In this document: one piece after another, positions 1 to 30,979 of the stretch
Layout: each line of letters opens with the position of its first letter
Numbering within the stretch: the first letter of the stretch is position 1
DNA from: a virus
Taxonomy: Duplodnaviria > Heunggongvirae > Uroviricota > Caudoviricetes
Reading direction: 5' to 3' (one strand)
IMG/VR virus record: IMGVR_UViG_644736365_000004
DNA length: 30,979 nucleotides
Translations under genes and position numbers: made by a program
Notes under the pieces: model-generated
What the model saw: only the letters and a program-made list of their open reading frames with translations
Told to the model about the DNA's origin: nothing
The model's database searches: none

Positions 1-290
1 CTATTTATCGGAAGGTTTATCTTGCTGCGGTTTGTTGTTGACCATATCGCACAACATAGAGAGCAGCATTAACCGTACTTTAAAGGGAGAATGACTAAAC
101 ACGCGCATACACCTCTTGAACTCATTCATAAGACCTCCTGACTTGCTAATCCCGTCGATCCTTGAGGGATGATTGCATTACATACAGATATAGCACAGGC
201 TATATTATAAAGCATTAACTATCTACGAAAAACAGTAACTTACAGTGTTATCAATAAGTTACGTTAGTTAATATTCGTGAGTATTCGGCA

Positions 291-390
291 GTGTTTCTAA
301 GTTATCGCGACAATTTTGCGACATTTTAAGGGGTTAAGCGTACAGCTTCTTCAAGGTAGCTTGGGGCGAAATGCACCGCGCAATGCGGGG
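291..390 (-). pseudogene. integrase 3'-end remnant (partial duplicate of the int C-terminal region)
   Basis: 322-375 aligns with 1222-1276 (3' end of the intact int) with a few mismatches and one 1-nt indel; 291-301 matches 1202-1212. Minus-strand translation reads ...HFAPSYLEEAVRLTP* versus int ...HFAPSHLEDAVRLNPLKC... Similarity is lost right of ~390, so only about 20 C-terminal codons remain. Confidence 0.45.
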
Positions 391-467
391 GTAGCGGCTG
401 CAAGCCAGAAAGCGGCTGAAATTAAAATGGGTACGCTTACAGAGTGATTACCTTTTCAATTGTTATG

Positions 468-497
468 TTGAGTTAGCTGCTTGAAGTTATGTAGAAT
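468..497 (+). promoter_or_regulatory. candidate sigma70 promoter for the 580-1161 ORF
   Basis: TTGAGT (468-473), 18-nt spacer, TAGAAT (492-497), about 80 bp upstream of the ATG at 580. Hexamer match only. Confidence 0.2.
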
Positions 498-579
498 TTC
501 TATTCTAAGAACTAGAGTAGGGTGAACGACTGCTTTAGGAACACGGTGGGTAACCATTTCAACTTTTTGTGGACAAGTA

Positions 580-1161
580 ATGAATATACTTACTCAGTAT
601 GGGAAAGAAATATTTGCACTTTTTGTTCCTATTTTTACCTTATTTATCAATAAGATTTTTAAAAATGGAGCGAAAATTTGCTATGGAGAGCTTCACCAAT
701 ATAGCTATTTAATTAACGAGCCGTTACGTAATGCTGAAGGTGAAATTGTTAAGGCAAAACAGGTGGTGCATACAAAATCCTATGCCTTTAAAAACGAAGG
801 AAAAGAACCTGCTACTAATGTGGAGATAATTTTCAATTACCCACCTATGTACGTAAACATTTGGCCCTCAAGGCATTACACAATTAAGAGTGATGCCGAA
901 GAAAGGCAGGTTATGTTGTTTGATTATCTTGCACCACATGAATCTATACGATGTGAGGTTATGTCGATAAATACTGACTTACCCGCGTTGCTCACAGTGA
1001 GATGTAAAGAAGGAATTGCACGAAATATAACCTTGGTTCCTCAAAAACTTCACCATCCGGCCTTTATTCATTTTTGTCAACTATTGCTGTTTCTGGGGTC
1101 TGTAACTTTAATCTACATTGTTGTTGTTTTCCTCCAGTGGTTGTTGCTGAAAACAGGTTAG
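580..1161 (+). CDS. hypothetical membrane protein, cargo gene between int remnant and int
   Basis: 193-aa ORF in a visibly AT-rich segment, convergent with int. Hydrophobic N-terminal segment (FALFVPIFTLFINKIF) and C-terminal TM helix (FCQLLLFLGSVTLIYIVVVFLQWLLL) flank a ~140-aa soluble region. No recognisable family. Confidence 0.5.
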   Translation: MNILTQYGKEIFALFVPIFTLFINKIFKNGAKICYGELHQYSYLINEPLRNAEGEIVKAKQVVHTKSYAFKNEGKEPATNVEIIFNYPPMYVNIWPSRHYTIKSDAEERQVMLFDYLAPHESIRCEVMSINTDLPALLTVRCKEGIARNITLVPQKLHHPAFIHFCQLLLFLGSVTLIYIVVVFLQWLLLKTG

Positions 1162-1181
1162 AGACCTTTTATCCTTGTTGT

Positions 1182-2237
1182 TTATGTTTTGGTACTCGAC
1201 AGTATTTCTAAGCTGCTGCGGCATTTTAAGGGATTAAGCCGCACAGCGTCTTCAAGGTGGCTTGGGGCGAAATGCGCATACCGCATTGTCATAGTGATAT
1301 CGGCATGGCCGAGGATTTTTTGGAGAACCAGAATGTTGCCGCCGTTCATCATAAAGTGGCTGGCAAATGTATGGCGTAGTACGTGGGTAAGCTGACCTGC
1401 TGGTAGTTCAATGCCAGCACGTTCCAGAGCGGAACGGAAAGCGTTATAGCAGGGCTTTGGAAACAGAGCGCCTTTTGTTTCGGGTAGTTCAGCCAGCAGT
1501 TCATCATCTAACGGAATGGTACGGTTCCTTTTCCCTTTTGTTTTTATGAAGGTGACTTTTCCGCCAGCTATCTGGGAACTTTTGAGTGTTGCCGCTTCAT
1601 TCCATCTTGCGCCAGTCGCCAGACAGATTTTTACGACTAACTCTAAATAACTTACTTTACTGCGTTTGCATTCCAGCAAAAGCCGATCAATTTCCTCAGC
1701 AGTGAGAAATGCCATTTCAGTTTCATCTGTACGGTACTGTCTGACGTTCTCCAGTGGGTTAGGGGCTGACCACTCACCGATCCGTTTCAGTTCATTGAAC
1801 ATAGCCAGAAAATATGCGTGTTCAAGGTTCATTGTTTTAGGTGAAACCTTAGAAACACGGTTAGTACGGGCATAATGCCCTTCAAGCCTTTTTGCACGGT
1901 ATGCTGTAAACAGCTGGGCATTAAACTCAGTGGCCAGCGGAAAACCCATACACTCCGCCGCCCAGGTCATTGCGTCTTTACGCTTTTTACCATTGCGTAG
2001 GGCAACGCCGTGGCGCTCGTACCACATTGTAATCAGGTCGATTAATGTTCGTTTATCTTTCCCTTCACCTAACCACGGCGCACTATCTACCTTTTGAAGC
2101 GTGTGATTCTCAAATGCCAGGGCTTCTCCCTTAGTGGCAAATTTTTTACGTATACGCTTCCCGTTTTTACCATTGCTGCGGTTGACGGTGTAGAAGTCGG
2201 CGATCCATTCGCCAGTAGGAAGTTTACGAACACTCAT
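1182..2237 (-). CDS. int: tyrosine site-specific integrase (P2/186-type)
   Basis: 351-aa ORF. C-terminal catalytic signature ATGARWNE ... HVLRHTFASH ... MTMRYAHF (R, H-x-x-R, Y). Sits next to the repressor at the prophage edge. Confidence 0.9.
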   Translation of the reverse strand: MSVRKLPTGEWIADFYTVNRSNGKNGKRIRKKFATKGEALAFENHTLQKVDSAPWLGEGKDKRTLIDLITMWYERHGVALRNGKKRKDAMTWAAECMGFPLATEFNAQLFTAYRAKRLEGHYARTNRVSKVSPKTMNLEHAYFLAMFNELKRIGEWSAPNPLENVRQYRTDETEMAFLTAEEIDRLLLECKRSKVSYLELVVKICLATGARWNEAATLKSSQIAGGKVTFIKTKGKRNRTIPLDDELLAELPETKGALFPKPCYNAFRSALERAGIELPAGQLTHVLRHTFASHFMMNGGNILVLQKILGHADITMTMRYAHFAPSHLEDAVRLNPLKCRSSLEILSSTKT

Positions 2238-2238
2238 T

Positions 2239-2820
2239 TTATTTAATCGTCAGAACTACGCGGCCAATGATTTTTATGTCGTCGATGCCACAATCAAAAG
2301 CCATGCCCACGCCACTAACTCTTACTTTGCGTACTGGAATTCTTGTCAGTGTACGAATGCTAATTTTTCCTTCTACTTCAACCAGCCAATCGTCGTCATA
2401 AACTTCAGAGTAAGACTGGTCAACGATGTACTGTACAAGACCATCCAAAACGCATAACGGCTGTTGTGGTAGTGATTTACCTGGTAGGAAAGTGACTTTA
2501 TCAAGCATAAGAGTGCCTGAGTCGTAAAGCTGGCCATCAACGATCTTGCTGCGTGGAATTCTGAGAATGTCTAATTCTTCATCATTAAATTTTGGGCCGT
2601 GACCAGTAGCTAGCCATTCCAGGTTAGCGCCTGTTTCAGCAACACATTTAACGACGATATCAGCTGGGAAAACTCCACGTTTATAGCGTGATGATAGAGA
2701 ACTGGCAGCCATGTCCAGATGTTCTGCTAGCTGTAACTTCTGCGTAAATCCGTAAGCCTCGATCACCCGATCCAGAATCGGGGTGCTGTCAACGTTCAGG
2801 TCAATTTTGAATGTGCTCAT
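2239..2820 (-). CDS. CI-type prophage repressor (phage 186 cI-like by size and position)
   Basis: ORF immediately upstream of int on the same strand, divergent from the Apl/CII-like operon. ATG at 2818-2820 (MSTFKIDLN...) gives 193 aa; the track start at 2862 is GTG. Start choice is uncertain. Confidence 0.55.
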   Translation of the reverse strand: MSTFKIDLNVDSTPILDRVIEAYGFTQKLQLAEHLDMAASSLSSRYKRGVFPADIVVKCVAETGANLEWLATGHGPKFNDEELDILRIPRSKIVDGQLYDSGTLMLDKVTFLPGKSLPQQPLCVLDGLVQYIVDQSYSEVYDDDWLVEVEGKISIRTLTRIPVRKVRVSGVGMAFDCGIDDIKIIGRVVLTIK

Positions 2821-4799: not shown

Positions 4800-5033
4800 A
4801 TGCACATGACACGTCAGGATTTACCCGCAACAAAATCAGGCACTGACCTGCTGGCTATGCTCACCAAAGCCACGCAGGAAGGTAAAGCAGCTGCTGCTGA
4901 TCTGTGTTCCACCCGCCTGGATAAGCTGGCCACCCATGCCGTCAATGAAGGTTTAAGCGCAACAGAAATCGTTGAGTTAATCCGCGAAGAAGCCGCAGCG
5001 ATTTGCAGTAAAGGCGGTGCAGCATGGCAGTAA
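4800..5033 (+). CDS. hypothetical small Ala-rich protein
   Basis: 77-aa ORF with RBS AAGGAAA. Its stop overlaps the dam start (ATGGCAGTAA). Confidence 0.35.
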   Translation: MHMTRQDLPATKSGTDLLAMLTKATQEGKAAAADLCSTRLDKLATHAVNEGLSATEIVELIREEAAAICSKGGAAWQ

Positions 5034-5893
5034 AAACTCCGCTTAAGTGGGTGGGCAGTAAAGCCCGCCTTATGCCGCAGTTGCTTCCCCATCTGCCGGA
5101 GGGCAAGCGCCTTATAGAACCTTTTGCTGGTTCCTGTGCAGTCATGATGAATACGGATTATGACGAGTACCTGATCGCTGATGTGAATCCTGATCTGGTT
5201 AATCTGTATAAGACTATGGCCTATCAGACTGATGCATTGCTCATTGAGCTGGAAGCTTTATTTTCTGCCGGTTCATTAGGCGATGAAGAAAGTCGCGCTG
5301 TTTTCTATTACGCGGTGCGTGATGCCTTCAACCAGTCCGGCAAATCCTTTGGTTCTGAATCTGTGGAAGCTGCTGCGCGTTTTCTTTATCTGAACCGTCA
5401 CTGCTTCAATGGCCTGTGCCGATACAATCGTCGTGGCCAGTTCAATGTTCCGTTTGGTAAGTACAAAAAAACCTACTTTCCTGCTGATGAAATCCGCGCT
5501 TTTGCAGAAAAAGCGAAACGTGCAACGTTCATTACTGCCCACTATTCAGAAACGCTTGATTTGGTAAGGGACGGGCATGACGTTGTTTATTGTGATCCGC
5601 CTTACCTGACTGATACCGACAATTTCACCGCGTACCATGAGCGCGGTTTTTCTCACATGGATCAGGGGCGGCTGGCGCGTAAGCTGCGCCGCCTGGCTGA
5701 GCGTGGGATTAAGGTTGTCGCGTCAAACAGCGATCTGGAAATGGTGCATTACCTGTATGCAGGATTTGACGCTGTGCGGGTAAATGCCCCACGCAGTGTG
5801 GGTGCAGCAGCTGCAAGCCAGAAAGTTGCCGCAGAGCTGATTCTTAAGTCACCTGCAAACCCCGCGATCGGCGTTAGGGCGGTGATGGCATGA
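5024..5893 (+). CDS. dam: DNA adenine (N6) methyltransferase, Dam family
   Basis: 289-aa ORF with AdoMet-binding motif EPFAGS near the N-terminus and catalytic DPPY (VYCDPPYL). N-terminus MAVKTPLKWVGSKARL is typical of Dam-type enzymes. Confidence 0.85.
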   Translation: MAVKTPLKWVGSKARLMPQLLPHLPEGKRLIEPFAGSCAVMMNTDYDEYLIADVNPDLVNLYKTMAYQTDALLIELEALFSAGSLGDEESRAVFYYAVRDAFNQSGKSFGSESVEAAARFLYLNRHCFNGLCRYNRRGQFNVPFGKYKKTYFPADEIRAFAEKAKRATFITAHYSETLDLVRDGHDVVYCDPPYLTDTDNFTAYHERGFSHMDQGRLARKLRRLAERGIKVVASNSDLEMVHYLYAGFDAVRVNAPRSVGAAAASQKVAAELILKSPANPAIGVRAVMA

Positions 5894-6102
5894 TGACGGA
5901 AATTATCACCGGCTTTTATGCCTTGTTTGCCTGTATCACTTTCGCCTTTCTCTTATGGGGCGAATGCCAGGACGAATTTGATCATGATGCTGAGGATTTA
6001 GGGTTAATCACACTGAGCGCGGTTTTCTGGCTACCACTGGTAGCGGCCGTACTTGTGGCCTTTCTGATTGATTTCTGGCGCAAGTGGGTTAACCGTGGTT
6101 GA
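5890..6102 (+). CDS. hypothetical small membrane protein (two predicted TM helices)
   Basis: 70-aa ORF. Start overlaps the dam stop (ATGATGA); its stop lies 1 nt before the replication gene ATG. Two hydrophobic stretches separated by an acidic loop. Confidence 0.4.
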   Translation: MMTEIITGFYALFACITFAFLLWGECQDEFDHDAEDLGLITLSAVFWLPLVAAVLVAFLIDFWRKWVNRG

Positions 6103-6103
6103 T

Positions 6104-8119
6104 ATGCTGGAGCCTGGCCAACACCATGCCGTCAATGCCTGGCGGCGTGAAACCTTTGCGCCTGGTACCCCGTCAGATGCGACGATCACCGAACGCCGCC
6201 TGTGGGCTGTTAACCCACAGGATTATGAATGGCGTTCCCAGTACCTGCATGAGATACCCGACTGGTTAGCCGGGTATTTCGGCAACCGTTACGAAAAGCT
6301 GCTGGCTGGTCGTGACGGGCGTCGCCGTGCCAATACATTCTTGCGCAAAACTATCGGCGAGAATGTATTGCCACGTCTGCGCAAAGTGGCTGCACGTTAC
6401 AAGCTGGCTGCTGATGCACTTGATCTTCCTTTCGGTAAGTCGCTGGAGCGACTGCCGTCACTTGACCGCCCGGACCTCAAAAAATTGGCTGGCCAGATAT
6501 CTGGCTGGATCTCACAGTCACTTTATGACTTCACCGATCAGTTTGTGGGCAGCACTGACGGTGCCGCAGAGCTGCGCCGCCGTACGCTGGAGTCTTACCG
6601 CCATTTATGCACGTGTTCCCTGATGCTGAACAATCAACCGCCGTACTGGGCAGAACATGAAGCTAATGGCGGACAACTGGAAACACGTAAGACTGAATCC
6701 GGGATTCTCCGCATGATGGCACCTGAATGGTGGTATCTGCGTCTTAAGCGGGCGCGGGATATGCAGCGTGAGCATATGGCCATTGCCGTGGGGCAGGTGC
6801 AAAAAGCAGCCAGTGCTTATGTGTCCCGTAAAACCCTGGGTGAATGGATAGACCAGAAAAAGCGGAACCTTGAGTTCTTTAAAAAGTTTGATCTGCTGAA
6901 TGATGAAGGGCTGCGTATTGCACTGGACAGCATGGTGCACCGCAGCGTTGCTAATCCGGCGATCCGTCGCTGTGAGCTAATGGTAAGAATGAGAGGATTT
7001 GAAGATATGGCCAATGAAGAAGGGCTGGCCGGTGAGTTTTACACCATCACCGCGCCATCGCGGTTCCATGCGGTACACAGCAAAGGGGGCTTTGTTTCAC
7101 AGTGGGATGGCTGCACCCCACAGGACACCCAGCGCTATTTATGTGGTGTATGGGCGAAAGCCCGCGCTGCTATTTCCCGTGCAGGTATCCATGTTTTTGG
7201 TTTTCGTGTGGTAGAGCCTCACCACGATGGGACACCGCACTGGCATATGCTGCTTTTTATGCGTCCTGGTGACGTGGATACCGTGCGCGATATTCTTTGC
7301 TATCACGCCAGAATTACCGACTCCGAAGAACTGCAAACGCCAAACGCGCTAAAGGCACGTTTTCATGTTGAAGCCATCGATCCCGCTAAAGGTTCGGCTA
7401 CGGGTTATATCGCCAAATACATATCCAAAAACATTGATGGATTTGCGCTGGATGGTGAGCAGGACGATGAAACAGGGGAAAGTCTGCGGGATATGGCCAA
7501 ATCCGTTTCTGCATGGGCTTCACGCTGGCGCATTCGCCAGTTTCAGCAGATTGGTGGTGCGCCGGTTACAGTCTGGCGTGAGCTGCGCCGGTTACGTGAT
7601 CAGGTACTGACTGACCGCAGAATGGATGCGGTTCTGGCTGCTGCGGATGTTGGGGACTGGGCGGCATATACCCAGGCACAGGGTGGCGCACTGGTTGCCC
7701 GCCGCGATCTGGTTGTTCGTCTGGCTTATGAAATCACTGAGCAGGGTAATGAATACGCAGAGGACGTGCAGCGCGTTCAGGGTGTCTATTCTCCATTGGT
7801 TCCAGATTCGGCGGTATGTACGCGCCTGGTGAAGTGGCAGAAGGTTGCGAAGTTGGCCGAAGCGCCAGCGGAGGCGGGTTTTTCTGGCGGCAACGCCGCC
7901 CCTTGGAGTTCTGTCAATAACTGTACGGAGGGTGGAACCCGCAGACGGTTAAAACTGGAATTGCGCAGCCGGGGTTTTGATGGTTCTGACGATGAAATAG
8001 CCATTCTCATGCGGGGCAGTGGTTTGAGATTTGGCCAGGTGGCATTGATTTACCGTAATGGCCGGTTGCAAGAGACACGAAGCGAGCCAACGCACGAGCT
8101 GTGGCCGGGGTGGTTGTAG
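6104..8119 (+). CDS. rolling-circle replication initiator (P2 gpA / 186 A family)
   Basis: About 671 aa from the ATG at 6104 (track start 6068 is TTG). Metal-binding HxH motif (PHWHMLLF) and tyrosine motif GYIAKYISKN are characteristic of gpA-type initiators. Size and position match. Confidence 0.8.
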   Translation: MLEPGQHHAVNAWRRETFAPGTPSDATITERRLWAVNPQDYEWRSQYLHEIPDWLAGYFGNRYEKLLAGRDGRRRANTFLRKTIGENVLPRLRKVAARYKLAADALDLPFGKSLERLPSLDRPDLKKLAGQISGWISQSLYDFTDQFVGSTDGAAELRRRTLESYRHLCTCSLMLNNQPPYWAEHEANGGQLETRKTESGILRMMAPEWWYLRLKRARDMQREHMAIAVGQVQKAASAYVSRKTLGEWIDQKKRNLEFFKKFDLLNDEGLRIALDSMVHRSVANPAIRRCELMVRMRGFEDMANEEGLAGEFYTITAPSRFHAVHSKGGFVSQWDGCTPQDTQRYLCGVWAKARAAISRAGIHVFGFRVVEPHHDGTPHWHMLLFMRPGDVDTVRDILCYHARITDSEELQTPNALKARFHVEAIDPAKGSATGYIAKYISKNIDGFALDGEQDDETGESLRDMAKSVSAWASRWRIRQFQQIGGAPVTVWRELRRLRDQVLTDRRMDAVLAAADVGDWAAYTQAQGGALVARRDLVVRLAYEITEQGNEYAEDVQRVQGVYSPLVPDSAVCTRLVKWQKVAKLAEAPAEAGFSGGNAAPWSSVNNCTEGGTRRRLKLELRSRGFDGSDDEIAILMRGSGLRFGQVALIYRNGRLQETRSEPTHELWPGWL

Positions 8120-8196
8120 CAGTATAAATCTGTGTAACACGTTCATTTGTCAGTAGATGGCAGGAAAATACATTTCACAATTTGTGCTTTACGGTG

Positions 8197-8216
8197 TACT
8201 GTATGTATATACAGTT
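8197..8216 (+). promoter_or_regulatory. LexA (SOS) box
   Basis: TACTGTATGTATATACAGTT fits the CTGT-N8-ACAG consensus, 23 bp upstream of the 8239 ORF. Confidence 0.6.
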
Positions 8217-8238
8217 ATATATTGTTTGTGGGGGCTAA

Positions 8239-8445
8239 ATGGATCTTTTGGAAGCGTCGGCACAGCTGGAGCGCATTGAGTTATTGGCCAAAATTGCCCA
8301 TGTGTACGAAAGTAACCAGAGAGAAAAAACAATCGCTTTGGCCTGGATTGGTGAGATTGCTGGAGAAATGCGGGAGATGGTCAGAACAGAAGCTAAAAAC
8401 CCCCAGGAAGGGGGCTTATCAGGCGGCGGGAGTCGCTTTCAGTAG
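8239..8445 (+). CDS. putative SOS-inducible antirepressor (Tum-like)
   Basis: 68-aa ORF with G-rich RBS, directly downstream of the LexA box. Position after the replication gene matches tum of phage 186. No direct sequence recognition. Confidence 0.4.
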   Translation: MDLLEASAQLERIELLAKIAHVYESNQREKTIALAWIGEIAGEMREMVRTEAKNPQEGGLSGGGSRFQ

Positions 8446-9800: not shown

Positions 9801-11572
9801 GCAGCCTCTTTCCTTACACCCCAGCGGGATTTCGGTTTGTTTTCGTAGTTGAGTGGTTCGTTATGCAGGGCGTGGGTAATTGCCCAGAACGCCTCCGCGT
9901 GGCCAGTGTCCTGGCTGCGGTCAGCGACAAATGTCATGGCGTTACCGCTTTGCGTGGTGGTGCGGCGTACAGCCATAAAGCTGGCCGGGATCTCTTTAAG
10001 GTTCTTGTCCCATTCAATACGCTGACTTTCCACCACGTCCGCCGCTTTCAGTACCAGCTGATTTTTTGTGTTCATGTCGTAACGAATGGCGACGGCCACG
10101 CGCATGGCAAAATGCTGGATGTTGTCAAAAACACCCTGGCCAATACCGGTAACGTCCACTCCCAGATAGGTGAAGTTGTATTTTTTAAACAGGAGTTCGA
10201 TCTGCCTGGCCTGATAGCGGAAGTTCATGCCCTTCCAGTTAATGACCTTCAGAACGCGGAATTTCTCTGCGGCATACATCGGCGGGGCAATAATCACAAA
10301 ACACGACAAATCGCCGCTGCGTGCCGGGTCAAAGCCTCCCCATACTGGCCTGTCACCAAATGGCCGCGCAGCGTCCGGGTTGTGATCCTGCCAGGTGTCC
10401 ACCTCCACACCGCAGGCTTCCAGATCTGAAAAGCTGAATACAGAATCCTTGCTGTCCACGAACACGCACATATAGAGCATGTTGAAGGTGGCAGTGTTGT
10501 AGCGGTTGCGCAGCTTCTCGATGTTGGCCAGGTTGAAGCCGCCCGCAATGGCATCCTCCATCGTGATGACATAGCGCCACTGACCGTCCGGGCAAAGCCG
10601 TCCGCCGTTGCGCATTTCATCAAAGGACGGGAACCGGGCGGCCGCGCGTTTTTTGCTGCCCTGTTTCCATTCCTCACCCGTCCAGAACGGGTAAGCCTGG
10701 TGTGTTTTGGCCGATGGTGTTGAAAAGTAGGTGGTGCGCCATTTGTCATGGGTGGCCATTGCGCTGGCCACTTCGTTAAGCCTGGCGAAGTTAGGCACCC
10801 AGAAATATTCGTCACAGTACAGGTGGCCACTGTAGGACTGTGCCGTGTTTTTGTTGGTTGAGAGAAAACGCAGTTCAGCGCCATTGCTGAGGCGGATCGG
10901 GTTGCCGGTCAGCGTGATGCCAAAATACTGCTCTGCAATGTTGACGATGTAAGACCGGAAGTATTCCGCCTGGACTTTGGAGGCTGACAGGAAGATTTGC
11001 GGATCGCCTGTCATGACCGCGTTTTCAAAGGCTTCAAATGCAAAGTACCAGGTGGCACCGATCTGGCGGCTTTTAAGGATGTTCCTGACCTGCTGGCCAA
11101 TATTCCTGCGCAGGTGTTTCTGGTATTCAAAAAGATGTTCATCCGCCCAGGTGTCAAAATCCGCCTGAGTCAGAGAAGAAATATCGTTTTTCCTGTTTTT
11201 GCGTTTGGGGCGCGGTTCATCGCTGTTACTGTCCCGCTCAGCTGCCTGACCGTTACTCTGGCCGCTGGCCATCTTTTCTTTATGCTTATTGCTTTGAGCA
11301 CGCAGCTTTGTGGCGTGGGCAATCAGCATGTCCATTTCTTTCAGGTCGAGATCGGTTTTATTATCGCGGCTGGCCAGCAGCTGGTAGCGGCGTTCGATTG
11401 CCTCCTCTGTACTTTCAAAACTGAGTAAATCAGCCCAGCTGTATTTCTCAGCCCAGTAGTAAACGATCCGCGCATTCGGCAGATTTAATTCTGATGCAAT
11501 TTCTTTTGGCGTATAGCGGCGCAAATAAAGTGCGCGGACAACGCCTTTTAGTTCTTCTGAGTATTTAGCCAT
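9797..11572 (-). CDS. terminase large (ATPase) subunit (P2 gpP-like)
   Basis: 591-aa ORF divergent from the scaffold gene. Contains LKSRQIGATWYFA, a motif I recall from P2-type terminases. Length matches gpP. Confidence 0.85.
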   Translation of the reverse strand: MAKYSEELKGVVRALYLRRYTPKEIASELNLPNARIVYYWAEKYSWADLLSFESTEEAIERRYQLLASRDNKTDLDLKEMDMLIAHATKLRAQSNKHKEKMASGQSNGQAAERDSNSDEPRPKRKNRKNDISSLTQADFDTWADEHLFEYQKHLRRNIGQQVRNILKSRQIGATWYFAFEAFENAVMTGDPQIFLSASKVQAEYFRSYIVNIAEQYFGITLTGNPIRLSNGAELRFLSTNKNTAQSYSGHLYCDEYFWVPNFARLNEVASAMATHDKWRTTYFSTPSAKTHQAYPFWTGEEWKQGSKKRAAARFPSFDEMRNGGRLCPDGQWRYVITMEDAIAGGFNLANIEKLRNRYNTATFNMLYMCVFVDSKDSVFSFSDLEACGVEVDTWQDHNPDAARPFGDRPVWGGFDPARSGDLSCFVIIAPPMYAAEKFRVLKVINWKGMNFRYQARQIELLFKKYNFTYLGVDVTGIGQGVFDNIQHFAMRVAVAIRYDMNTKNQLVLKAADVVESQRIEWDKNLKEIPASFMAVRRTTTQSGNAMTFVADRSQDTGHAEAFWAITHALHNEPLNYENKPKSRWGVRKEAA

Positions 11573-11627
11573 GCGGATAATTATGCCGTGGCTGTTATGA
11601 AAAAACGGTGGTGTTAATTCGCGTCTG

Positions 11628-11650
11628 TTCGGTAATACGTGATAACCGAA
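11628..11650. promoter_or_regulatory. dyad symmetry element in the divergent late promoter region
   Basis: TTCGGTAA-N7-TAACCGAA (7 of 8 arm positions complementary), flanked by CTGTTC direct repeats (11625-11630 and 11651-11656), in the 161-bp region between the terminase and scaffold starts. Confidence 0.3.
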
Positions 11651-11733
11651 CTGTTCAGAATAAAGCGTGATGCGGTGGTGGTTTTATTTGGCAATAATTG
11701 ATTTGCAGCGTCGGTGAATAAATCAGGGGGGAT

Positions 11734-12537
11734 ATGTCGCATTTAAAAACTGACTGGCTGTGTGTTGCTACCGAAGGGGATACCGTTGACGGCAGGGATA
11801 TTAAACGCCAGTGGATTATCGATATGGGGGAAACCTATGACTATAACCACTATGTCGCTTTAATCTGGCCAGAACACGAGGATGATTGCGGTAATTTTGG
11901 GGAGGTACTGGAAGCCACCTGGCATGATGGTGAGGACGGACTGGCGCGGCTTTACGTCAGCCTTTGCCCGAATATGCGATTAATATTCGCCAACCATGAA
12001 GATCAGCTCCTGTTCTTCTCGATTGAACCGGAAGAAAACTGGCGCGGTAGTGGGCGTACATACCTCAAGGGGCTGGCGGTTACAGATACTCCCGCCAGTG
12101 TTGGCACCACACGGCTGCGCTTTAGTAGTCGGCGCAAAAAATTATCTAAGCAGGGATATTACAGTTGTGTGATTTCCCGTGATGGAAAAATTAAACAGGA
12201 AATACGAATGAAGAACTGGCAAAAATTGTTTGGTATTAAACCGAAGTTTGAAGATGAAACGCCGCCTGATGATACCGCGCAGGGTGATGATAAGTTACAG
12301 GCGCTGGCCAACGCGGTAAACGAACTGGAAGGCCGTGTAGCCAAAATTGAAAATCAGCTCAATGATGTTCAGGGTGATGTGGATACCATTGCGGAAGTGG
12401 TCGATACCGAAGAATTTGCGGTTATTCGTGATAATGCAAAAGATATCGTTAAACGTTTTAACGATCTGGGTAATAAATCCACCCGTACACCAGGGCGCAA
12501 GATTTCAGAAAAAGCGGGTAAATTTAATTTCCTGTAA
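11734..12537 (+). CDS. capsid scaffolding protein (P2 gpO-like)
   Basis: 267-aa ORF. Motifs VATEGDTVDGR and LKGLAVTDTPASVGT match the conserved gpO signatures (EGDTCDGR, LVGLAVTDDPASLGT) as I recall them. Confidence 0.8.
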   Translation: MSHLKTDWLCVATEGDTVDGRDIKRQWIIDMGETYDYNHYVALIWPEHEDDCGNFGEVLEATWHDGEDGLARLYVSLCPNMRLIFANHEDQLLFFSIEPEENWRGSGRTYLKGLAVTDTPASVGTTRLRFSSRRKKLSKQGYYSCVISRDGKIKQEIRMKNWQKLFGIKPKFEDETPPDDTAQGDDKLQALANAVNELEGRVAKIENQLNDVQGDVDTIAEVVDTEEFAVIRDNAKDIVKRFNDLGNKSTRTPGRKISEKAGKFNFL

Positions 12538-12598
12538 TACGTTCTGACGTTAATTAGTACAAAACATTTTTATTATCGCTTAATCGCGAGGGAGTTTT

Positions 12599-13621
12599 AT
12601 GCACCTTAATAATCGTGCACGGGATTTACTGGATAAATATTCGAGTGGTATGGCGCAGCAGTTTGGCGCACGTGATACCAGTCGTTATTTTTCCCTGAAT
12701 GACCCGCAGGAAAATGCGCTGCGTCTGGCGCTGCTGGAGTCCGTGGAGTTCCTGAACATGATCACCTGTCTGGATGTTGACCAGCTGAGTGGCCAGGTGA
12801 TTTCTGTCGGCTCCTCCGTGCTGCATACCGGCCGCAGTGAAAATGGCCGCTTTGTTCGTCAGGTTGGCGTGGACGGCAATGACTATTCACTGGTTGAAAC
12901 GGACAGCTGCGCCGCACTGCGCTGGGATCTGCTTTCCGTCTGGGCCAATGCCGGTAAGGACGAAAACGAGTTTTACAACCTGGTCCAGGCGTTTACCACA
13001 CAGGCGTTTGCGCTGGATATGCTGCGTATTGGTTTTAACGGTAAGAGCCGTGCCAAAACGACGAATCCAACGGATAACCCGAACGGCGAAGATGTCAACA
13101 TCGGCTGGCATGAGCGTATGAAAACGCTGCTGGGTGGTAATCAGATTATGACCGATCCGGTCGTGCTGGATGAAGCCGGGGATTACAAGTCACTGGATGC
13201 AATGGCTTCAGACCTGATTAACGCCAAGATTCCTGCCCAGTTCCGCAATGACCCGCGTCTGGTGGTTCTGGTTGGTGCCGATCTGGTTGCTGCTGAACAG
13301 TACCGACTGTATCAGGCCGCAGACCGCCCGACTGAGAAAATCGCGGCGCAGATGCTGGGCAGCACTATTGCTGGCCGTCCTGCTGTTATCCCGCCGTTTA
13401 TGCCGGGTAAACGTATGGTCGTCACGCCACTTTCTAATTTGCACATCTACACCCAGCGCAACACCCGTATGCGTAAGGCTGAATTTGTTGAAGATCGTAA
13501 GCAGTTCGAAAACAAATACCTGCGCAATGAAGGTTACGCGGTTGAAGTGCCGGAGCTGTACGCGGCCATTGATGAATCCGCCGTGACCATTGGCAAGGTT
13601 TCCGAACCAGCAGAGGGCTGA
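12599..13621 (+). CDS. major capsid protein (P2 gpN-like)
   Basis: 340-aa ORF with RBS GAGGGAG, immediately after the scaffold gene. Size and synteny. Confidence 0.8.
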   Translation: MHLNNRARDLLDKYSSGMAQQFGARDTSRYFSLNDPQENALRLALLESVEFLNMITCLDVDQLSGQVISVGSSVLHTGRSENGRFVRQVGVDGNDYSLVETDSCAALRWDLLSVWANAGKDENEFYNLVQAFTTQAFALDMLRIGFNGKSRAKTTNPTDNPNGEDVNIGWHERMKTLLGGNQIMTDPVVLDEAGDYKSLDAMASDLINAKIPAQFRNDPRLVVLVGADLVAAEQYRLYQAADRPTEKIAAQMLGSTIAGRPAVIPPFMPGKRMVVTPLSNLHIYTQRNTRMRKAEFVEDRKQFENKYLRNEGYAVEVPELYAAIDESAVTIGKVSEPAEG

Positions 13622-13624
13622 TAA

Positions 13625-14326
13625 ATGGCACTTTCTCCCGCGCAGCGTCACAGCCAGCGCATTGCGATGGAACAAAAGCTGAAACGCAGTCAGGCACTGG
13701 AAACCACAGAAAGCATGCACCTGCTGATTAAGGCGCTGGAAACGGATGTGGAACATGCCCGTAACCTGCCGACAATCGCGGATCGCGTTGAGTTTAAGCG
13801 GGATGTGTTGCTGCCGCGCTGGACACCGACTGTGGAAGCGTATCTGGAAAACGGGCAGGTGTACGCCAACCCGGTATTTGCCTGGTGTGTTATCTGGCTG
13901 TTTGACGTGGGCGATCTGGATAAGGCGCTGGACTGGGCTGACATTGCAATCAGCCAGCAGCAGGCAACCCCGGATCGGTTGCGCAGTAATTTTCCCACGT
14001 TCGTGGCCGATACGATGCTGGCCTGGGCGCAGGAAACATCAGGGCGCGGGGAAAGTGTTGAACCGTATTTCTCCCGCACCTTTGATCGTGTCGCCAGTAC
14101 TTGGCGGCTGCATGAACAGGTCACGGCCAAGTGGTTCAAATTCGCTGGGTTGAGGCTGCTGCGCAACGAAGATGGCCAGACAACGGCAGCGAGTGTCGAT
14201 GATATCGAAACGCTAGAGAAAGCCGATCAACTGCTGGCCACCGCAGAAAAATACTATTTAAAAATCAGCGTCAAAACGGCACGGCAGACGATTGCCGCCC
14301 GTATCCGAAAACTGACGCAGGGGTAA
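13625..14326 (+). CDS. terminase small/endonuclease subunit (P2 gpM-like)
   Basis: 233-aa ORF following the capsid gene. Size and synteny with P2 O-N-M-L. Confidence 0.7.
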   Translation: MALSPAQRHSQRIAMEQKLKRSQALETTESMHLLIKALETDVEHARNLPTIADRVEFKRDVLLPRWTPTVEAYLENGQVYANPVFAWCVIWLFDVGDLDKALDWADIAISQQQATPDRLRSNFPTFVADTMLAWAQETSGRGESVEPYFSRTFDRVASTWRLHEQVTAKWFKFAGLRLLRNEDGQTTAASVDDIETLEKADQLLATAEKYYLKISVKTARQTIAARIRKLTQG

Positions 14327-28789: not shown

Positions 28790-28800
28790 TCATCCCATTA

Positions 28801-28825
28801 GCCCGCGCGTAATGCGGGTTTTTTT
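28801..28825 (+). terminator. Rho-independent terminator ending the late operon
   Basis: Stem CCCGC (28802-28806) / GCGGG (28814-28818) with a 7-nt loop, followed by a run of 7 T (28819-28825), 12 nt after the hub-spike stop. Confidence 0.6.
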
Positions 28826-29333
28826 GTACCCATTCCCAGACCTCACCAGACGCATTCTAAGCGCTTCTTTTATCTGACCACTACCGCGCAACACCACAAA
28901 AGGATCTGTGCTGTCACGTTACGCTGACGGCGTTACACGCTGACGAAATAAATCTTTCGCAGACAAAAACGGCACTACACCGCACCCGCCTGCGGTTTCT
29001 GGATCGATAAAATTTTTCATTTTTCTTTTTCTTCAAACAACCAACCCAGACAGCGCCATTACTGGGGGATTAGCGGCTAACGTGAACTGAAAAGATTGAA
29101 AAGAATTTCAGTATTTTTCAGTGGAAAGGATCGATGGCGGGAATGATGAAATTACTAACATGTTGATATTTAATTAGTAATTTAGTTTTATGCGGGAGGG
29201 GGAGGATCCTTTCGTGCTGAATGGTTCTGAGAACATAAAGCCCGTGAAGATAGGAACTACGCGGGCTGTACATACTTTGTGTGTGATTTCAAAACTGAAA
29301 TTTATCAGCTGTGGCATCAGCAACTAGTTTTAA

Positions 29334-29504
29334 CTAACGTTTTTTAGGTGGTGGAGCAATATGTTGGGTTTGTTGGGTCTGGCGTGGTGGTTGGTAGCCA
29401 TTGTTTTGTTGGTCTGGCCTGCTTGTAGGCTGGTAACCTTTTTCTACAGGTTGCCAACCATCGTGGATAGTTCTTGGATTGTTAGCCGGTTTATCTTCAA
29501 CCAT
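29334..29504 (-). CDS. hypothetical small Pro/Gln-rich protein
   Basis: 56 aa from the ATG at 29502-29504, which overlaps the stop of the upstream membrane-protein ORF (AATGGTTGA). Contains repeated G[WY]QP motifs. Low complexity, so coding status is uncertain. Confidence 0.3.
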   Translation of the reverse strand: MVEDKPANNPRTIHDGWQPVEKGYQPTSRPDQQNNGYQPPRQTQQTQHIAPPPKKR

Positions 29505-30135
29505 TTTCTGCCTCACCTTTGTTAGGATTACTATTATGTACTTTAATAAATTCAACACTTTCTATTTCATTAGTCAATATAATTATCCCTAATGTATCGG
29601 TTAGTTCGTGATCGAAATCACTATTGTCATCTAGTGCCCAATGTTTTTCTAGATATATTTGCTCCGGTTCGGGACTACTTGACGCAAATGAAGCACTACC
29701 ATAATAGCCACCATATTTTTTACCATTCTTAAGTGTGACCAGCACCCAGCAGCATTGTCTGGTTGAAAAGAAGTAGTCCCATGAACGCCCAATAGGGTGA
29801 GGTAGGAAACGTTTGACCATTTCACAGTTTCGAATGAATATTAAAAATATAGGTAGTAGTACAGGGATAACTATTAATACACAGAAATAAAATAAATAAT
29901 AAAGGATTGGGTTAGTAAGGAATATATCATTATCTTCAATTAGATATATTGGTATTAATAGAAAAGAATAATTTATACAGCTATAAGAAACTACATCTAT
30001 CAGAATTTTTGAAGTGTCAGAATCCGCAGATGGGTGAAAGAGCCTGTAAACTCTCATGCTAATAAAGCCGGGCATGATGAAAAGCACAAATAACAGTAGT
30101 TTACCCTTTTCTAGTATGTCCATTTTTATATCCAT
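29497..30135 (-). CDS. hypothetical polytopic membrane protein
   Basis: 212-aa ORF in very AT-rich sequence. About three N-terminal TM helices (LLLFVLFIMPGFI, SFLLIPIYLI, LFYFCVLIVIPVLLPIFLIFI) and a ~110-aa soluble C-terminal domain. Confidence 0.5.
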   Translation of the reverse strand: MDIKMDILEKGKLLLFVLFIMPGFISMRVYRLFHPSADSDTSKILIDVVSYSCINYSFLLIPIYLIEDNDIFLTNPILYYLFYFCVLIVIPVLLPIFLIFIRNCEMVKRFLPHPIGRSWDYFFSTRQCCWVLVTLKNGKKYGGYYGSASFASSSPEPEQIYLEKHWALDDNSDFDHELTDTLGIIILTNEIESVEFIKVHNSNPNKGEAENG

Positions 30136-30481: not shown

Positions 30482-30979
30482 CTACAGCTTTCCTTCCGAA
30501 ATCTTGAAGTCCACAACTTCTTTAGTTTTCAGATCAAGCGTGCAAGCATAAGTCATGGTCATTTTGGCATTGAAGCCATTGGTGAATTTGACCTTATCAC
30601 CGATGAAAGTTAACTGGTTCTTTTTGCTATCAATTCGGCCATGTGAAAACATAGGGTCTAACATCCCATCAGTCCATTCAAATTCATATTTTGCCGAACG
30701 CTCAACCAATGGTTTGCATTTGGTCACCGCATCGATCAGGTTCTTATCAAAGTTGCACTGAGTGTCTGTGTTAGAGCATACCTTCGTGGCCTCAGCTGCT
30801 TTATCGTCGTCGCTATTGCCAACGAAGTACATGACTATCCCGACAATAATAATCAGTATCAGACAGCCGCTAAGTTTCTGTTTAGCACCAAAGCCCGGAT
30901 CTTTAACGCCGCAGTGAGGGCAGGTCTTTGCAGAGGTTGATACTTCTTTTTTGCATTCTTTGCATTTAGTGAGTGCCAT
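30482..30979 (-). CDS. hypothetical zinc-ribbon membrane protein
   Basis: 165-aa ORF. N-terminal zinc ribbon C-x2-C-x10-C-x2-C (CKECKKEVSTSAKTCPHCG), one TM helix (LILIIIVGIVMYFVG), and a Cys-containing ~115-aa C-terminal domain. Its ATG is the last 3 nt of the window, so the N-terminus and promoter may be cut off. Confidence 0.5.
   Translation of the reverse strand: MALTKCKECKKEVSTSAKTCPHCGVKDPGFGAKQKLSGCLILIIIVGIVMYFVGNSDDDKAAEATKVCSNTDTQCNFDKNLIDAVTKCKPLVERSAKYEFEWTDGMLDPMFSHGRIDSKKNQLTFIGDKVKFTNGFNAKMTMTYACTLDLKTKEVVDFKISEGKL

Follow-up and report, generated by a model that had tools for sequence, protein, structure and literature searches.

Why does the 3' end of an integrase gene occur twice at one end of a prophage, once inside the intact gene and once, broken, next to the attachment site? 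The question is raised by the left end of IMG/VR record IMGVR_UViG_644736365_000004, a stretch of 30,979 nucleotides from a tailed phage (Caudoviricetes) that was analysed at its full length and is called the window here. A sequence-only reading of this DNA had claimed that the integrase (int) 3' end recurs upstream in the same orientation and that the two copies bracket a one-gene cargo cassette. Both claims held, and we consider it likely, if some way from certain, that the upstream copy, a stub of the gene, has been retained as the functional P' arm of the attachment site of a composite phage.

The window comprises Escherichia coli mntS and, from its left end onward, a prophage of the 186/P2-like type (Peduoviridae) that sits between mntS and mntR. 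Homology to prophage-free K-12 spans window 1-216, and in 5422 of 5426 complete E. coli genomes this segment is matched and then continues into mntR. The prophage has the gene content of the 186/P2 group (int, CI, CII, Fil, Dam, replication endonuclease, portal, terminase, capsid and tail genes). The features on which the argument rests are as follows.

1-129, minus strand: mntS, the chromosomal gene flanking attL, so annotated in all matching E. coli genomes.
198-209, plus strand: att core GGCTATATTATA, the crossover region of attL and the only block common to attL, attR and the empty attB.
210-330, plus strand: P' arm of attL/attP, 91-93% identical to cargo-less relatives, with an IHF (integration host factor)-like site at 249-261 and a tandem repeat at 307-323.
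297-374, minus strand: int 3' stub, a pseudogene of ~26 codons with a 1-nt deletion and its ancestral stop at 297-299.
307-323, plus strand: tandem repeat GCGACAATTTTGCGACA with an 11-nt period, a putative Int arm-type site assigned by comparison.
580-1161, plus strand: cargo gene cargo193, 193 aa, with a beta-sandwich domain between two transmembrane helices (residues 3-27 and 160-192).
1182-2237, minus strand: int2, an intact integrase of 351 aa (Pfam Int_N, 4.6e-31; Phage_integrase, 6.6e-25).
1192-1275, plus strand: the second repeat copy, which forms the 3' end of the intact int; it has lost one 11-nt arm-repeat unit, its other unit is degenerate (CTGCGGCATTTT), and the arm motif has no match in it.

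The core was defined by comparing attL in the window, attR of the same prophage in NZ_CP106924 (locus L004) and the empty attB of K-12. The sequence-only reading had left the position of attL to an empty site in a prophage-free strain, and the K-12 site puts it at 198-209. The core is present as a single copy in the window at up to two mismatches, and at that threshold neither a second core nor another att site was detected between the cargo gene and int. No tRNA gene was found anywhere in the window; the att site is intergenic.

How strong the similarity between the two int ends is had been judged by eye and left to a pairwise alignment. Local alignment of 260-450 against 1161-1350 identifies 281-374 and 1192-1275 as a real direct repeat in the same orientation, with a score of 44, far above that of 2000 shuffles (mean 7.9, standard deviation 1.1, maximum 15). 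A repeat search returned two blocks (324-374/1225-1275 and 281-316/1192-1227), which the gapped local alignment merges. Aligned with MAFFT, the copies agree in 71 of 82 aligned columns (86.6%), with 12 further gap columns that correspond to a 1-nt deletion in the upstream copy and to an 11-nt segment (a TCGCGACAATT-type unit) present only upstream and missing from the intact int. The 1-nt indel had been noticed before but was taken for the only one, the 11-nt indel being overlooked; likewise the upstream copy, given as 291-390, does resemble int, but its int similarity ends at 374, and dam-like sequence begins at 362. Read on the minus strand, the upstream copy runs ...HFAPSYLEEAVRL, is then frameshifted, and continues as NPLKCRKIVAIT to a stop codon: it is a broken, frameshifted int C-terminus, as had been proposed. 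The only intact gene between the copies is that at 580-1161.

Which of the two copies stands in the original place can be read from related prophages at the same site. Prophages occupy the mntS-mntR site in 30 E. coli genomes; int lies directly beside attL in 23 of these, which lack both cargo and repeat, and the remaining seven have both, in the window arrangement. Window 213-373 aligns with the attL arm and int 3' end of the 23 cargo-less prophages at 90-92% identity, their int stop codon corresponds to window 297-299, and their homology to the window ends at 373 and restarts at ~1189. Because the int 3' end of the 23 relatives sits exactly where the upstream copy sits, the alignments identify the stub as the int 3' end in its ancestral position, now frameshifted. 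This pattern bears out the suggestion that a module was inserted or exchanged beside att, at the 3' end of int.

The arrangement of direct repeats in the same orientation around a single gene is also what one would see if insertion of the cargo had produced an in-situ, target-site-like tandem duplication of the int 3' end whose copies later diverged. The two copies, however, are 13% and two indels apart, whereas the seven carriers match the window arrangement at 99.6-99.9% and so differ by no more than 0.4%; the copies were therefore diverged alleles before they were joined. The stub is moreover closer to the int alleles of the cargo-less phages (90-91%) than to its own neighbour int2 (86.6%), and a fragment of a dam gene lies between the stub and the cargo. 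An in-situ duplication is thus extremely improbable. Target-site duplication by a transposable element was considered as well and rejected: the repeats span ~95 nt and differ by 13% as well as by indels, and neither a transposase nor terminal inverted repeats are present.

The intact gene, int2, is 98% identical in amino acid sequence to the 346-aa allele of the cargo-less prophages, with a nucleotide identity of only ~88%. The 11-nt deletion near its 3' end shifts the frame and gives a new C-terminal tail, SSLEILSSTKT, and a length of 351 aa instead of 346.

The 11-nt indel is exactly one unit of the tandem repeat at 307-323, whose units are GCGACAATTTT and GCGACATTTT. A search of the 31-kb window with the pattern GMGACAN5GCGACR, one mismatch allowed, gave a single match, at 307-323 in the stub, and the tandem GCGACAnTTTTGCGACA motif is likewise confined to the stub. 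The 3' end of int2 lacks one repeat unit and has GCGGCA in the other, the counterpart sequence set against GCGACAATTTTGCGACA being CTGCTGCGGCATTTT. Loci L002, L006 and L024-27 have the tandem motif in their P' arm, where it is part of the int 3' end; in the Yersinia phage vB_YenM_324, a member of the Peduoviridae and the closest named phage relative, as in the cargo-less relatives, it falls within the last int codons and encodes ...CRKxVA.... A second copy in the same orientation lies across the core, in the P arm or next to attR or the core, in L004, L005, L014, L015, L016, L018 and L034. In the prophage itself, GCGACAATTTTGCGACA lies 97 nt to the right of the core and GAGACATTTTTGCGACA 60 nt to its left (the latter seen in L004), and the same layout recurs in relatives.

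The spacing is conserved along with the motif. In the window, L002, vB_YenM_324 and L037 the distance from the core edge to the start of the repeats is 96-97 nt, and in the first three of these a match to the IHF consensus lies 39 nt from the core; vB_YenM_324 has its spacings of 39 and 96 nt, and L037 its arm-repeat spacing of 96 nt, despite a different core. Because the motif sits in both att arms of relatives at conserved spacing, 307-323 is assigned as a candidate arm-type site (criterion for arm-type repeats of P2/186-type attP: PMC3448106), and we infer that Int binds the tandem repeat and IHF the site at 249-261. The motif GCGACAnTTTT is, on these comparisons, likely to be a third type of arm site within the same architecture as that of P2 and 186, and it comes with a conserved geometry in which the IHF-like site is 39 nt and the tandem repeats are 96-97 nt away from the core. 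The P2-type arm consensus was also considered in the window; it occurs once, as TGTGGACA at 568-575 just upstream of the cargo start codon, and was rejected as an arm site, since one occurrence is expected by chance. The arm repeats of L036 are different, GGGGACGAAAAGGGGACA on the P side and the 186-like GCCACTTTATCGCCATT (GCCACTT repeats) on the P' side; in L037 the motif GCGACATTTTTGCGACA stands by itself, at 96 nt from the core.

The seven carriers extend the argument from position to spread. Over the 6 kb of chromosome to the left of attL they diverge by 2-3% per 500-nt bin, and over the first ~5 kb of the prophage they have 0-3 differing positions per 500 nt (no more than 0.6%); in one pair the flanks are 2.1% diverged and the prophage starts ~0.05%. 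From diverged flanks and near-identical prophage starts it follows that the arrangement formed once and then entered several E. coli lineages at the same core. To judge from this spread, an attP with the stub as its P' arm probably functions. The dam/replication region of the carriers (L031 and the window, both against L028-L030) is mosaic, with 4-8% divergence per 500-nt bin and indels; this region is locus ~11000-14300 (window ~5000-8300), and int-cI-cII are nearly identical. Module exchange therefore continued after the composite had arisen.

The motif and the spread also bear on a rival reading, in which the stub is a neutral scar of illegitimate recombination and the P' arm function lies elsewhere or is dispensable. 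A scar would suit a stub that is frameshifted and truncated, and the near-identity of the carriers makes the event look recent, so that there may have been no time for decay; nor is the motif part statistically distinct in conservation from the rest of the stub. Yet the tandem motif is found nowhere else in the window and lies at the distance from the core that is conserved in the family, and the composite has integrated at the same core in diverged hosts with an intact int that lacks the motif. The older-looking L037, for its part, keeps only the motif beside the core, the rest of any stub being gone. We regard a neutral scar as unlikely, if still a serious competitor.

Another reading takes the stub, the dam remnant and the cargo for what an older prophage left behind in the chromosome, a relic beside which the present phage integrated and without which it would excise. 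A joined int stub and dam stub is the leftover expected from internal deletion of a prophage early region, and comparable relics exist (L009, L039). Against this, at the threshold given above the stretch from the cargo to int2 holds neither another core nor an att site, the stub-dam-cargo block was never seen without the full prophage among the 5426 E. coli genomes, the near-identical block is found in hosts whose flanks differ by 2-3%, and the IMG/VR provirus L032 has the same gene order. A relic of this kind is very improbable as an account of the present arrangement; origin as a relic followed by capture is compatible with the stub as a retained P' arm.

What separates the stub from the cargo is best described by its parts.

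362-374, no strand assigned: junction J1 between int stub and dam stub, an imperfect 13-nt microhomology (TGGGGCGAAATGC; exact AAATG).
375-447, plus strand: 3' remnant of a D12-class Dam methylase gene, with its stop codon TGA at 445-447 and dam-like similarity beginning at 362.
448-559, plus strand: orphan spacer of 112 nt, with a promoter-like site at 468-497 (TTGAGT-18-TAGAAT) whose match is not above chance.
1162-1191, no strand assigned: junction J3, at which the 3' flanks of the cargo and of int2 meet; cargo-locus homology ends by 1172 and int 3' flank homology starts from ~1189-1192.
5775-5825, plus strand: the segment of the intact dam (5024-5893) that is paralogous to the dam stub.

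The intact dam gene carries a Pfam MethyltransfD12 domain (2.8e-66). Window 362-412 is 80% identical to 5775-5825 (84% over 44 nt by blastn, E 4e-7), with resemblance up to ~430, and this is the second-best match of the region within the window, with a score of 26.5 and all others at 12 or less. The dam stub is in frame, its peptide NAPRNAGVAAASQKAAEI matching NAPRSVGAAAASQKVAAEL, and its allele ends ...AASQKAAEIKMGTLTE. Only ~25 C-terminal codons are kept, similar to the 3' end of the intact dam; 375-447 was considered as a D12-class N6-adenine DNA methylase and rejected, since it lacks the full MethyltransfD12 domain and is a gene fragment, not a member of the class. At J1 the int-type repeat (D1) stops at 374 and the dam-type repeat (D2) begins at 362; at the other end, the int2 3' flank starts 20-30 nt past the cargo stop codon. 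As int (leftward) and dam (rightward) bracket the early region, the int 3'/dam 3' join would be the product of deleting that whole region. A fusion of related form is seen at L039 1217-2393, where the minus-strand 3' half of an integrase runs straight into the 3' portion of the plus-strand 567-aa tail gene, with cargo193 coming next; by analogy, this is a deletion remnant comparable to the int-stub/dam-stub junction of the window.

The source of these pieces was sought in several ways. The spacer has no similarity to any of 42 fetched loci or to the rest of the window. For the dam stub and spacer, a distant blastn search in E. coli returned only the carriers' own dam; with the dam stub peptide, tblastn against phages gave only noise (E=4), its back-translated pattern in IMG/VR found the same phage only, and a protein word search for the donor gave no candidate.

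Several points weigh against the stub as a functional P' arm, or against the composite origin that goes with it. The match to the IHF consensus is weak, with three matches in the window where 1.2 are expected. The stub outside the motif, at 88%, is only slightly more decayed than the arm part at 91-93%. The motif GCGACAnTTTT differs from the published consensus of both P2 (tgTGGaCa) and 186 (tgccGCCActt), and the assignment of the arm sites is a comparative one. The donor of the dam stub, the spacer and the cargo allele was not found in the searches just described, and at least three junctions need explaining.

With these points in mind, the retention of the stub as P' arm could have come about as follows. 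In the normal layout the last ~10 int codons would double as the P' arm, with two 11-nt repeats (GCGACAnTTTT GCGACA) ~97 nt from the core and an IHF-like site between repeats and core. The original int would have been lost when a deletion or illegitimate join, at a short microhomology, left only its last ~26 codons, attached to the 3' end of a dam gene. The cargo and a second, already diverged int allele would then follow, most simply through recombination of two related phages, or of a phage with a decayed resident prophage. The stub, although non-coding, would have been kept as the sole carrier of P' arm-type Int sites correctly spaced from the core; int2, with no further need of such sites, would have lost one unit, probably by slippage, leaving a tail five residues longer. 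Excision by attL x attR would rebuild an attP of the form P arm-core-stub, and the dam remnant and cargo would travel as a new moron between attP and int. Arm sites and coding sequence, once overlapping in the int 3' end, would in this way have been split between the stub and int2.

A more general proposal, which we put forward tentatively and hold to be less likely than not, starts from the P' arm-type sites that this phage lineage has within the last codons of int. With the sites so placed, no gene could be captured between att and int without an int 3' remnant staying behind next to the core, after which arm binding would fall to the stub and coding to the new int. The window would be a young case, and L037, with the bare motif next to the core and cargo ahead of int, an old one. 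In the same proposal the joined int and dam remnants would point to an infectious phage that used the attL of a decayed resident prophage to rebuild its own attP, and so brought the cargo gene of that relic back into circulation.

The case is one of ordinary phage mosaicism with an instructive twist. It gives a concrete and testable reason why a pseudogene fragment should be kept beside att, namely for recombination signals that once overlapped coding sequence; current understanding is not overturned, and the reading of mosaic junctions at int and att is refined.

The likeness to the P2/186 attP, with its heterobivalent tyrosine integrases and arm-type sites, is close: int adjoins attP, the core is common to attB, and int2 has an N-terminal arm-binding domain (Pfam Int_N) together with a catalytic domain. 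Unlike in P2 and 186, the repeat GCGACAnTTTT follows neither consensus, attB is the mntS-mntR intergenic region, and the repeats, normally inside the int coding sequence in the lineage of the window, here lie in a stub 0.9 kb from int. The att-arm sites of KplE1 (CPS-53) attL/intS are reported to overlap the integrase gene region as well, with recombination and int gene structure constraining each other (PMC2951348); there the overlap concerns the intS promoter and its regulation, whereas here it involves the int 3' coding end, with a stub retained after rearrangement. Grounded or decayed prophage remnants provide a third comparison, in that int 3' is joined to dam 3' as in the int-tail fusion of L039, and in L009 a relic has kept cargo193; unlike such remnants, that of the window is part of an apparently complete prophage that spreads horizontally.

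The site itself is also of interest. A DNA search of phage databases with window 1-2300 gave no near match, and the literature search found nothing on vB_YenM_324, nor on mntS as an integration site of P2-like phages. The mntS|mntR site is presented as a new integration site with its minimal attP, useful for calling prophage boundaries and for integration vectors.

The cargo gene, cargo193, resembles a moron in being a single AT-rich gene at a module boundary beside att and in its presence/absence polymorphism among similar prophages, present in seven and absent from 23 at the same att site. Its GC content is 33-40%, against 45-52% in neighbouring genes, and the promoter-like site at 468-497 is, as noted, no better than chance. 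In contrast to typical morons, its family usually lies across attP, at the right end after a tail gene, and here it lacks a terminator of its own, converges on int and came with a dam fragment. No terminator was predicted for the cargo; cargo193 and int are convergent with 20 nt between their stop codons (window 1159-1184), and the terminators found after cargo193 in L005 and L007 have no counterpart in the window, where read-through would run antisense to int.

In nearly all relatives cargo193 is found across attP, on the P-arm side, behind the 567-aa tail/baseplate gene; it has this place also in L015, which uses the same mntR site, and in the Yersinia phage. Among the arrangements seen, its position between the P' arm and int is specific to the window arrangement; the cargo has here changed sides of attP. 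The slot is nonetheless used by others: in tRNA-integrating relatives it holds different cargo, a 289-aa open reading frame in L036 and ~1.8 kb in L037; the stretches concerned are L036 600-1100 and 1012-1881 and L037 900-1500. The cargo thus varies among related prophages, as the sequence-only reading had supposed it might, and since L036 and L037 have theirs at the same P' arm-int position, this is a recurrent cargo slot. The gene also persists in the prophage relics L009, L012 and L039.

The AlphaFold model of cargo193 has a predicted local distance difference test (pLDDT) score of 85 and places the helices 3-27 and 160-192 on either side of the beta-sandwich. Homologues form ~40 clusters in Enterobacterales, nearly all exactly 193 aa long, with 71% mean column identity. 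There was no match in PADLOC or Pfam and one insignificant match in PHROG, the fold search returned only generic beta-sandwich matches, and a scan of GTDB genomes with the single cargo protein gave one locus only; the gene contexts given here come from contigs that encode homologues and from IMG/VR. In Pectobacterium (L019/L020; 1-2210, 4001-4585) a homologue lies ~1.8 kb from a Gabija-like pair of OLD-TOPRIM/AAA ATPase and UvrD-helicase genes, a neighbourhood that hints at a defence-island context, and in Pantoea (L021) one lies beside HipA/DUF6338 genes. From architecture and context we would guess at a membrane-located role in lysogenic conversion or exclusion. The family is a widespread one of 193-aa membrane proteins in att-proximal and defence-island-like contexts, and a candidate for such a role.

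The right end of the prophage has cargo of its own: a DUF6338 protein (Pfam 4e-37) is encoded at 29497-30135 on the minus strand, and a zinc-ribbon protein at 30482-30979, also on the minus strand, runs off the window and is 411 aa long in NZ_CP106924. After the 567-aa tail gene there is a conserved non-coding block at window 28790-29130 (...CAGACAAAAACGGCACTACACCGCACCCGCCTGCGG...), with counterparts at L015 3400-3740, L007 4790-4940 and L009 3560-3720. The block lies upstream of cargo193 in L009 and downstream of it in L007, and may be a cos or regulatory region.

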